The notes under the pieces are model-generated. The model did not search any database, was not told the DNA's origin, and saw only the letters and a program-made list of their open reading frames with translations. The position numbers were made by a program, and so were the translations under genes. Shown one piece after another: positions 1 through 557 of a stretch of DNA of 557 bases. Position 1 is the stretch's first letter, and each line of letters begins with the position of its first letter. Source of the DNA: Escherichia coli (GTDB lineage Bacteria; Pseudomonadota; Gammaproteobacteria; Enterobacterales; Enterobacteriaceae); the NCBI RefSeq assembly GCF_003334815.1, contig NZ_QOWO01000128.1, one strand, 5' to 3'.

Positions 1-57
1 GTCCTTCATCGCCTCTGACTGCCAGGGCATCCACCGTGTACGCTTAGTCGCTTAACC
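1..57 (-). rRNA. rrl: 23S ribosomal RNA, 5' end only (gene continues beyond the left edge of the window)
   Basis: The reverse complement of 1..57 reads GGTTAAGCGACTAAGCGTACACGGTGGATGCCCTGGCAGTCAGAGGCGATGAAGGAC, which matches the canonical 5' end of enterobacterial 23S rRNA as I recall it. The mature 5' end (GGTTAAG) falls at position 57. Boundary is from memory of the mature end, not from mapping. Confidence 0.93.
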
Positions 58-231
58 TCACAACCCGAAGATGTTTCACTTCAGAGTTGCGAAAATTTGA
101 GAGACTCACGAACAACTTTCGTTGTTCAGTGTTTCAATTTTCAGCTTGATCCAGATTTTTAAAGAGCAAAACTTCGCAGTGAACCTTTGCAGGTACACTC
201 TGAAGTATTTTTTATTTAATCACTACAGAGA
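58..231 (-). other. Transcribed spacer between tRNA-Ala and 23S rRNA (distal part of the 16S-23S ITS)
   Basis: Lies between the tRNA-Ala 3' end (232) and the 23S 5' end (57). AT-rich, with no ORF carrying a plausible start and ribosome-binding site on either strand. Contains the boxA-like motif and a tetraloop hairpin listed separately. Confidence 0.9.
156..168 (-). promoter_or_regulatory. boxA-like rRNA antitermination element in the spacer
   Basis: The reverse complement of 156..168 is TGCTCTTTAAAAA, which closely resembles the rrn boxA consensus (GCTCTTTAACAA), the NusB/NusE-binding element of the rRNA antitermination system. A spacer copy of boxA between the tRNA genes and 23S is a known feature of E. 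coli rrn operons. Exact extent is approximate. Confidence 0.6.
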
Positions 232-307
232 TGGTGGAGCTATGCGGGATCGAACCGCAGACCTCCTGCGTGCAAAGCAGGCGCTCTCCCAGCTGAGCTA
301 TAGCCCC
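232..307 (-). tRNA. alaT: tRNA-Ala, anticodon UGC, 76 nt, CCA encoded
   Basis: The reverse complement of 232..307 is GGGGCTATAGCTCAGCTGGGAGAGCGCCTGCTTTGCACGCAGGAGGTCTGCGGTTCGATCCCGCATAGCTCCACCA. It has the G3:U70 identity pair of tRNA-Ala, a D-loop (AGCTGGGAGAGC), anticodon TGC (plus-strand GCA at 272..274), a T-arm (GGTTCGATCC) and a 3' CCA. This matches the E. coli spacer tRNA-Ala(UGC). The paralogue (alaT, alaU or alaV) cannot be told apart from this window; the symbol is the family representative. Confidence 0.97.
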
Positions 308-349: not shown

Positions 350-426
<77 letters not shown>

Positions 427-494
427 GTAGAGGTTTTACTGCTCATTTTCATCAGACAATCTGTGTGAGCACTGCAAAGTACGCTTCTTTAAGG
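427..494 (-). other. Transcribed spacer between 16S rRNA and tRNA-Ile (proximal part of the ITS)
   Basis: The reverse complement begins CCTTAAAGAAGCGTACTTTGCAGTGCTCACACAGATTGTCTGATGAAAATGAGCAG, directly after the 16S 3' terminus. This matches the enterobacterial ITS sequence that forms one half of the 16S RNase III processing stem. Confidence 0.9.
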
Positions 495-557
495 TAAGGA
501 GGTGATCCAACCGCAGGTTCCCCTACGGTTACCTTGTTACGACTTCACCCCAGTCAT
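495..557 (-). rRNA. rrs: 16S ribosomal RNA, 3' end only (gene continues beyond the right edge of the window)
   Basis: The reverse complement of 495..557 is ATGACTGGGGTGAAGTCGTAACAAGGTAACCGTAGGGGAACCTGCGGTTGGATCACCTCCTTA. This is the universally conserved 16S 3' domain: the binding site of the 1492R universal primer, helix 45, and the anti-Shine-Dalgarno CCTCC (plus-strand GGAGG at 498..502). The mature 3' end is at position 495. Confidence 0.96.

Follow-up and report, generated by a model that had tools for sequence, protein, structure and literature searches.

Does the spacer that directly precedes the 23S rRNA gene of Escherichia coli form one strand of a long-range processing helix, and which of its nucleotides take part? 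We address this question for a 557-nucleotide stretch of E. coli DNA (contig NZ_QOWO01000128.1, assembly GCF_003334815.1), referred to throughout as the window. Read as its reverse complement, the window is an E. coli 16S-tRNA-Ile-tRNA-Ala-23S spacer, and all of its features lie on the minus strand (cmscan, ARAGORN). A first-pass annotation had assigned 58..109 to the 23S-proximal spacer and 427..494 to the 16S-proximal spacer, and had proposed that each forms one strand of a processing stem. It was unable to show the pairing because the partner strands lie outside the window. Rfam, ARAGORN, and the RefSeq annotation of the identical locus all agree with the layout it gave, position 58 being the first spacer base 5' of the 23S rRNA and position 494 the first spacer base 3' of the 16S rRNA.

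The window is 100% identical, among others, to rrnD of K-12 MG1655 (megablast), and its 557 bases are matched in 5,426 of 5,426 complete E. coli genomes (megablast). The far flanks used for pairing in E. coli are K-12 sequence, namely the MG1655 rrnD copy with 4.5-kb flanks (locus L001; window position = L001 - 4500). The yrdA/aroE genes upstream and the 5S-tRNA-Thr-5S tail identify this locus as rrnD. Its RefSeq coordinates are 1654-4557 for 23S, 4995-6536 for 16S, and 1444-1559 for the first 5S. Complementarity to the far flanks, which the first-pass annotation had named as the check to make, was found at window-equivalent positions -2901..-2845 and +2125..+2182. The distances it had anticipated (~2.9 kb upstream and ~1.6 kb downstream) and its strand logic were correct, the extents being merely approximate. 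We conclude that 58-109 almost certainly belongs to the leader strand of the E. coli 23S leader-trailer (processing) helix. Coordinates of all features are collected in Table 1.

Table 1. Features of the window and their pairing partners. Positions are those of the window; L001 is the MG1655 rrnD locus with its flanks.
Feature	Position	Strand	Partner or basis
23S rRNA 5' end, nt 1-57	1..57	minus	Rfam LSU_rRNA_bacteria positions 1-57; RefSeq annotation of identical locus
Helix H1 5' strand in 23S	57..50	minus	partner is 23S 3' end; pairs invariant in 30/30 operons
23S helix, proximal block, leader strand	58..77	minus	pairs L001 1655..1635 (23S nt 2903-2904 and trailer +1..+19)
Rfam RF01830 StyR-44 match	65..164	minus	cmscan, 106.9 bits, E=7e-18, full-length, model positions 1-107
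Internal loop or 3-bp local hairpin breaking the long-range helix	78..88	minus	cofold
23S helix, middle block, leader strand	89..104	minus	cofold
Local hairpin branching off the leader strand	107..131	minus	cofold; stem 121-131 with 107-116, GAAA loop
23S helix, distal block, leader strand AAUCUGGAUCAAGCUGAAAAUU	136..157	minus	pairs trailer L001 1599-1620 GAUUUUCAGCCUGAUACAGAUU
Spacer boxA UGCUCUUUAAAAA	156..168	minus	exact motif; directly 5' of leader strand, 2-nt overlap
tRNA-Ala(UGC)	307..232	minus	
tRNA-Ile(GAU)	426..350	minus	
Possible outer extension of 16S helix (GAGCAGU)	438..447	minus	predicted partner is leader boxA region, E. coli cofold
16S helix, 3' (trailer) strand	448..489	minus	pairs leader L001 6667..6625 (-131..-89)
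16S rRNA 3' end, nt 1471-1542	495..557	minus	Rfam SSU_rRNA_bacteria; RefSeq annotation

For the 23S flanks, one cofolding partner was the tRNA-Ala-to-23S spacer extended by 20 nt into 23S, and the other was the 94-nt trailer preceded by the final 20 nt of 23S. In E. coli, this yields four colinear intermolecular blocks: 50-57, 58-77, 89-93 together with 98-104, and 136-157. The 58-77 helix is contiguous with H1 (50-57 paired with L001 1663-1656), and its partner lies 2.85-2.90 kb upstream on the plus strand. Only two irregularities occur within it, a bulged trailer G (L001 1648) and a U.C mismatch (window 71 with L001 1641). In other operons, the column of this mismatch is occupied by C-G (10), U-A (7), U-G (7), and G-C (2). 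Located 14 nt away from the 5' end of 23S, the mismatch recurs in E. hormaechei and Citrobacter MGH106, and most of the remaining genera carry a Watson-Crick or G-U pair at this position.

Because the mature ends fix the position of the proximal helix, its complementarity can be scored with the start forced at the 23S boundary. This anchored score is 35; the shuffles average 2.5, and none of 5000 attains the observed value. The true register also outscores all 215 slid registers of the real downstream sequence. Unanchored local complementarity is far less discriminating for 23S: 24 of 500 shuffles do as well for 58-109 (p ~0.05), and 7 of 300 for the whole 23S spacer (p ~0.02). Duplex energies of the 23S blocks calculated with RNAduplex give z-scores of just -1.2 to -2.6, with dinucleotide shuffle means of -27 to -36 kcal/mol. 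The shuffling itself proved to be correct, and this statistic was dropped because many tiny helices are chained through large loops, which makes the background very high. Thus, whereas the unanchored Smith-Waterman search is decisive for 16S, it is marginal for 23S, and we used the anchored test and comparative analysis instead.

For the comparison, a genome collection was scanned for a 35-nt motif located in the 5' part of 23S, and the scan returned 106 Enterobacterales rrn stretches. Both 23S flanks are present in 36 of these, and both 16S flanks in 39. The 23S alignment holds 30 distinct flank sets from about 15 genera, all Enterobacterales sharing the 35-nt motif, and includes Escherichia, Enterobacter, Citrobacter, Klebsiella, Phytobacter, Buttiauxella, Pantoea, Tatumella, and Mixta. 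The motif also matched loci L070, L080, and L084, labeled as an Oxalobacter MAG, Microbispora bryophytorum (coverage 0.8), and an uncultured Desulfovibrio, respectively. These contigs are probably contamination or mis-binned.

We find that the E. coli pair map holds across this set. In the 30 operons, 92.5% of alignment cells are paired, compared with 37-47% for partners displaced by 1-3 columns. For the proximal helix alone, the value is 98.1% (30 operons). Three proximal positions covary across genera (columns 136/214, 141/209, and 137/213), and the proximal compensatory columns exchange A-U for G-C (18:12) and C-G for U-A (15:12). The remaining sequence is strongly constrained, with 21 of 27 proximal pairs never varying in the sampled genera. 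The number of independent covariation events is small because a large part of the covariation follows the division into two clades. RNAalifold, which was blind to the E. coli map, recovers the same proximal helix (columns 131-158 with 191-219). When the own flanks of every operon are cofolded, they adopt the three-block architecture, with 51-81 intermolecular pairs.

The second helix was also anticipated by the first-pass annotation, as pairing of 427..494 with the 16S leader. This complementarity is real (z = 15), but its conserved part is restricted to 448-489. The partner of 448-489 lies 1.63-1.69 kb downstream and forms 40 pairs in 44 columns, a score reached by 0 of 300 shuffles without any anchoring. 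The E. coli 16S flanks cofold with 49 pairs in total. Across operons, 85.5% of cells in the 16S map are paired, compared with 35-48% in slid registers, and the core is 100% paired. Compensatory columns in the core are 43/114 and 44/113. The cofold also predicts pairing of 438-444 with the leader boxA. We rejected this as part of the conserved helix, since only 57.8% of its cells are paired across genera.

Both helices can be compared with the ends that RNase III is known to generate. Published RNase III ends on 23S lie at +3 or +7 on the 5' side and at +7 on the 3' side (PMC8708148), and those on 16S at +115/+33 (PMC8708148, PMC6943124). On our map, the 23S -7 cut falls between window positions 65 and 64, and the -3 cut between 61 and 60; both are inside the 58-77 helix. 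Nucleotide -7 (window 64) pairs with trailer +5, and the 3' end at +7 (L001 1647) leaves a 2-nt 3' overhang. The 16S stem behaves alike: the partner of nucleotide -115 (L001 6651) is +31 (window 464), so that with the 3' end at +33 (window 462) two nucleotides again protrude on the 3' side. A 2-nt 3' overhang is the canonical geometry of RNase III products. The published cuts therefore provide independent support for the register of both helices. At the level of geometry, they are consistent with a model in which RNase III cleaves both strands within each helix. In addition, the trailer that remains up to 5S is 85-87 nt long, which agrees with the reported 9S precursor (+85; PMC8708148).

Not all of 58-109 is engaged in the long-range helix. 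The proposal that this interval is a strand of the 23S stem stands insofar as it pairs with the 23S trailer, but in the cofold only 58-77, 89-93, and 98-104 form long-range pairs, and the leader strand resumes at 136-157. The interruption at 78-88 differs in length and sequence between genera (columns 111-130 of alignment A1 are gappy). Positions 105-109 lie outside the long-range helix, at the base of the local hairpin 107-131. For this hairpin, RNAalifold predicts five pairs, all five with compensatory changes. It is ~25 nt long in Escherichia and Klebsiella and ~55 nt long in Pantoea, Buttiauxella, and Citrobacter, and these long forms contain a conserved UCUCCGUAAUAAGA loop region.

In the middle block, 89-93 (CGCUU in RNA sense, in the context CUUUUCGC) pairs with trailer L001 1633-1629, and 98-104 (the UCUCUCA region, within the conserved GAGUCUCUC) pairs with trailer L001 1628-1622 (GAGAGA...). 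The block is found in each operon's own cofold, with column counts of 39-87% paired. Counts for the middle block and for the outermost distal pairs understate the pairing because MAFFT places trailer indels inconsistently. For these regions, per-operon cofolds and a duplex test of own against cross trailers were added to the column counts. We have moderate confidence in the long-range pairing of the middle block.

The distal block comprises 20 pairs in 22 columns in E. coli. In a compact alignment, 88.6% of its cells are paired, compared with 24-50% when slid, and two of its columns show compensatory exchange (U-A/C-G, 11:7; U-A/A-U, 10:7). In 23 of 23 operons, the own trailer pairs more stably than trailers of the other 5' variant (-11.2 versus -6.6 kcal/mol), the two variants corresponding to two clades. 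Thus, the 23S leader strand, which is usually drawn as ~20 nt, may instead be ~100 nt long and consist of three blocks (58-157), starting at the spacer boxA.

The distal block contains an invariant segment, GCUGAAAAUU (window 145-136), which has two conserved partners. These are near-repeats in sequence, and pairing with one excludes pairing with the other. The local partner is AAUUUUCGC (window 89-97), as in the Rfam fold of the small RNA StyR-44, and is paired in 89.9% of cells. The trailer partner is AUUUUCAGC (L001 1611..1620), paired in 96.1%. The trailer duplex is the stronger of the two in 24 of 24 operons (-25.6 versus -6.9 kcal/mol). Covariation is unable to separate the two partners because the 5' segment never varies. 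Folded by itself, the spacer strand reaches -29.7 kcal/mol (z = -3.2), and in this structure a hairpin of 90-58 sequesters the proximal strand. Since the local fold is conserved too, the long-range middle and distal blocks are not the sole conserved option for these nucleotides.

These observations bear on a more conservative explanation, namely, that only the ~28-bp proximal helix is real and that the middle and distal extension is a prediction artefact of an AU-rich, conserved spacer. The middle and distal segments would then take up the local StyR-44 fold in vivo, or bind proteins, Nus factors for example, near boxA. Reviews put the 23S helix at about 30 bp (PMC8782170), as this explanation would predict. 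The weak unanchored statistics, the poor column statistics of the middle block, and a local alternative nearly as conserved as the long-range one point in the same direction, as does the inner distal sub-helix, which lacks covariation, its 5' segment being invariant. However, the two outer distal compensatory columns are predicted solely by the long-range model. The preference for own over cross trailers in all 23 operons, the stability of the trailer duplex over the local one in all 24, and the identical colinear architecture in every genus also argue against a proximal-only helix. Furthermore, pre-23S carrying up to ~100 extra nucleotides at both ends has been reported to build up in rnc mutants (PMC8708148), and extensions of this size fit the length of the extended helix. 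We therefore consider it unlikely that the helix is limited to its proximal part.

The two partners of GCUGAAAAUU raise another possibility, which builds on the extended 58-157 strand: the spacer could act as a co-transcriptional folding switch in which GCUGAAAAUU swaps its local partner for the trailer. Local AAUUUUCGC would be at hand directly upon transcription and would keep the leader strand parked in the StyR-44 fold. Once trailer AUUUUCAGC had been transcribed, 2.9 kb further on, it would take over GCUGAAAAUU, and the excised strand would snap back to the StyR-44 fold. Such a switch with snap-back would explain why StyR-44 is detectable as a metastable RNA. Folding energies make the park-then-exchange pathway plausible as a model, but we regard such a switch as rather improbable.

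The StyR-44 match (Table 1) is coextensive with the extended leader strand of the 23S helix and lies above the gathering threshold of 54 bits. In Rfam, StyR-44 is modeled as an RNA in its own right that folds into three local hairpins, whereas here the same nucleotides constitute the leader strand of the 23S helix. StyR-44 was cloned by Chinni et al. in 2010 and is present in all 7 rrn operons, upstream of 23S (PMC2943607). Northern blots detect it in S. Typhi and E. coli, where it is regulated by growth phase (PMC2943607). According to its discoverers, it is "processed from longer precursors" and is possibly a maturation intermediate (PMC2943607).

The interval could, on this basis, be mainly a free-standing regulatory small RNA gene whose complementarity to the trailer is incidental. 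A strong, full-length RF01830 match and an RNA that is detectable on northern blots and growth-phase regulated (PMC2943607) are what such a gene would produce, and the strand alone folds beyond its shuffles, with a conserved local pairing. Yet no promoter-like or terminator-like site was found anywhere in the window, and the StyR-44 3' end lies at -8, immediately before the cut that RNase III makes at -7. The interval also covaries with a trailer 2.9 kb away, for which an independent small RNA would have no need, and growth-rate regulation is expected of any fragment derived from rrn. The longer precursors reported by the discoverers, who themselves allow for a mere maturation intermediate (PMC2943607), likewise speak against a separate gene. 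The interval was thus rejected as a candidate independent small-RNA gene, its 3' end being explained by RNase III processing, and we judge it very improbable that this is its main role. Since the match is coextensive with the leader strand and ends at the cut, no promoter- or terminator-like site was found in the window, and processing from longer precursors has been reported, we interpret StyR-44 as most likely being the leader strand after its excision, and hence a by-product of RNase III cleavage. We argue that it refolds locally after excision.

The same study describes a second rrn-derived RNA, StyR-215, which is 62 nt long and ends 123 nt upstream of 16S (Chinni et al., PMC2943607). StyR-215 maps to L001 about 6660..6721, outside the window, and its end and the RNase III -115 cut are no more than 8 nt apart. 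It may be an analogous excised fragment of the 16S leader.

We give practically no credence to the idea that the spacer is unstructured filler, conserved by recent common ancestry and by gene conversion among rrn copies: the invariance of 21 of the 27 proximal pairs is indeed uninformative on structure, but double changes keep the pairing at three proximal and two distal positions, with the partner displaced by a single column about 45% of cells are paired instead of 92.5%, and the published cleavage sites fall in the helix with RNase III geometry.

The observed complementarity, its anchoring on the mature ends, its conservation with covariation, and its register with the published cuts can be assembled into a model of processing. 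In the nascent 30S precursor, the spacer upstream of 23S would pair with the trailer, which appears ~2.9 kb later in the transcript. This pairing would extend H1 to a duplex of ~28 bp (window 50-77), followed by colinear blocks at 89-104 and 136-157 that would reach up to boxA. RNase III would cut both proximal strands (-7 or -3 on the leader side and +7 on the trailer side), which would free pre-23S for trimming by exonucleases. In the same way, 448-489 would pair with the 16S leader, and RNase III cleavage at -115/+33 would release 17S. From established knowledge, RNase III is the enzyme concerned, cleavage is co-transcriptional, and boxA-bound Nus factors help to bring the two strands into contact.

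The position of the boxA elements is similar in both stems. The leader boxA, UGCUCUUUAACAA at L001 6680-6668, is one base apart from the spacer boxA UGCUCUUUAAAAA. The 16S helix begins at L001 6667, right after the leader boxA, and the 23S leader strand likewise begins beside the spacer boxA, at window 157. BoxA is the loading site of the rrn antitermination complex. For the role of boxA and the Nus antitermination complex as an RNA chaperone, what we see here is the sequence arrangement alone, in both stems. A stable hairpin at 168..210 (core 171-206, minus strand) lies directly upstream of the spacer boxA, where a boxB-like element is expected.

Both stems are already known and have been textbook E. 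coli biology since 1978-1980. A review puts the leader-trailer helix of 16S at more than 40 bp and that of 23S at about 30 bp, with RNase III cutting both (PMC8782170). Two articles (PMC6582327, PMC8708148) credit the first demonstration of the E. coli stems to Young & Steitz in 1978 and to Bram, Young & Steitz in 1980, the former describing "complementary sequences 1700 nucleotides apart" for the 16S stem. The window contains the very element known as the E. coli 23S RNase III stem, with the same extension of H1 and the same cuts (-7/-3, +7). Beyond the ~30 bp of reviews, the present map suggests colinear extensions, with ~100 nt of leader and ~55 nt of trailer. For the E. coli 16S RNase III stem, 448-489 is the 3' strand, the helix exceeds 40 bp, the register agrees with the -115/+33 cuts, and the sole addition of our map is the unconserved pairing of 438-444 with the leader boxA. 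Because the window is E. coli itself, it does not represent a new member of the family. The boundary refinements and our reading of StyR-44 are useful for annotation and are not discoveries.

Through these stems, E. coli obtains separate 16S, 23S, and 5S rRNAs from one common transcript; the stems also help to couple transcription to ribosome assembly. For annotation, 58-157 and 448-489 should be labeled as strands of processing helices and not as free regulatory RNA, and the Rfam StyR-44 match is to be taken as an RNase III by-product. If the dual-partner arrangement of GCUGAAAAUU proves to be a functional switch, it would be a small mechanistic addition to what is understood of co-transcriptional pre-rRNA folding.
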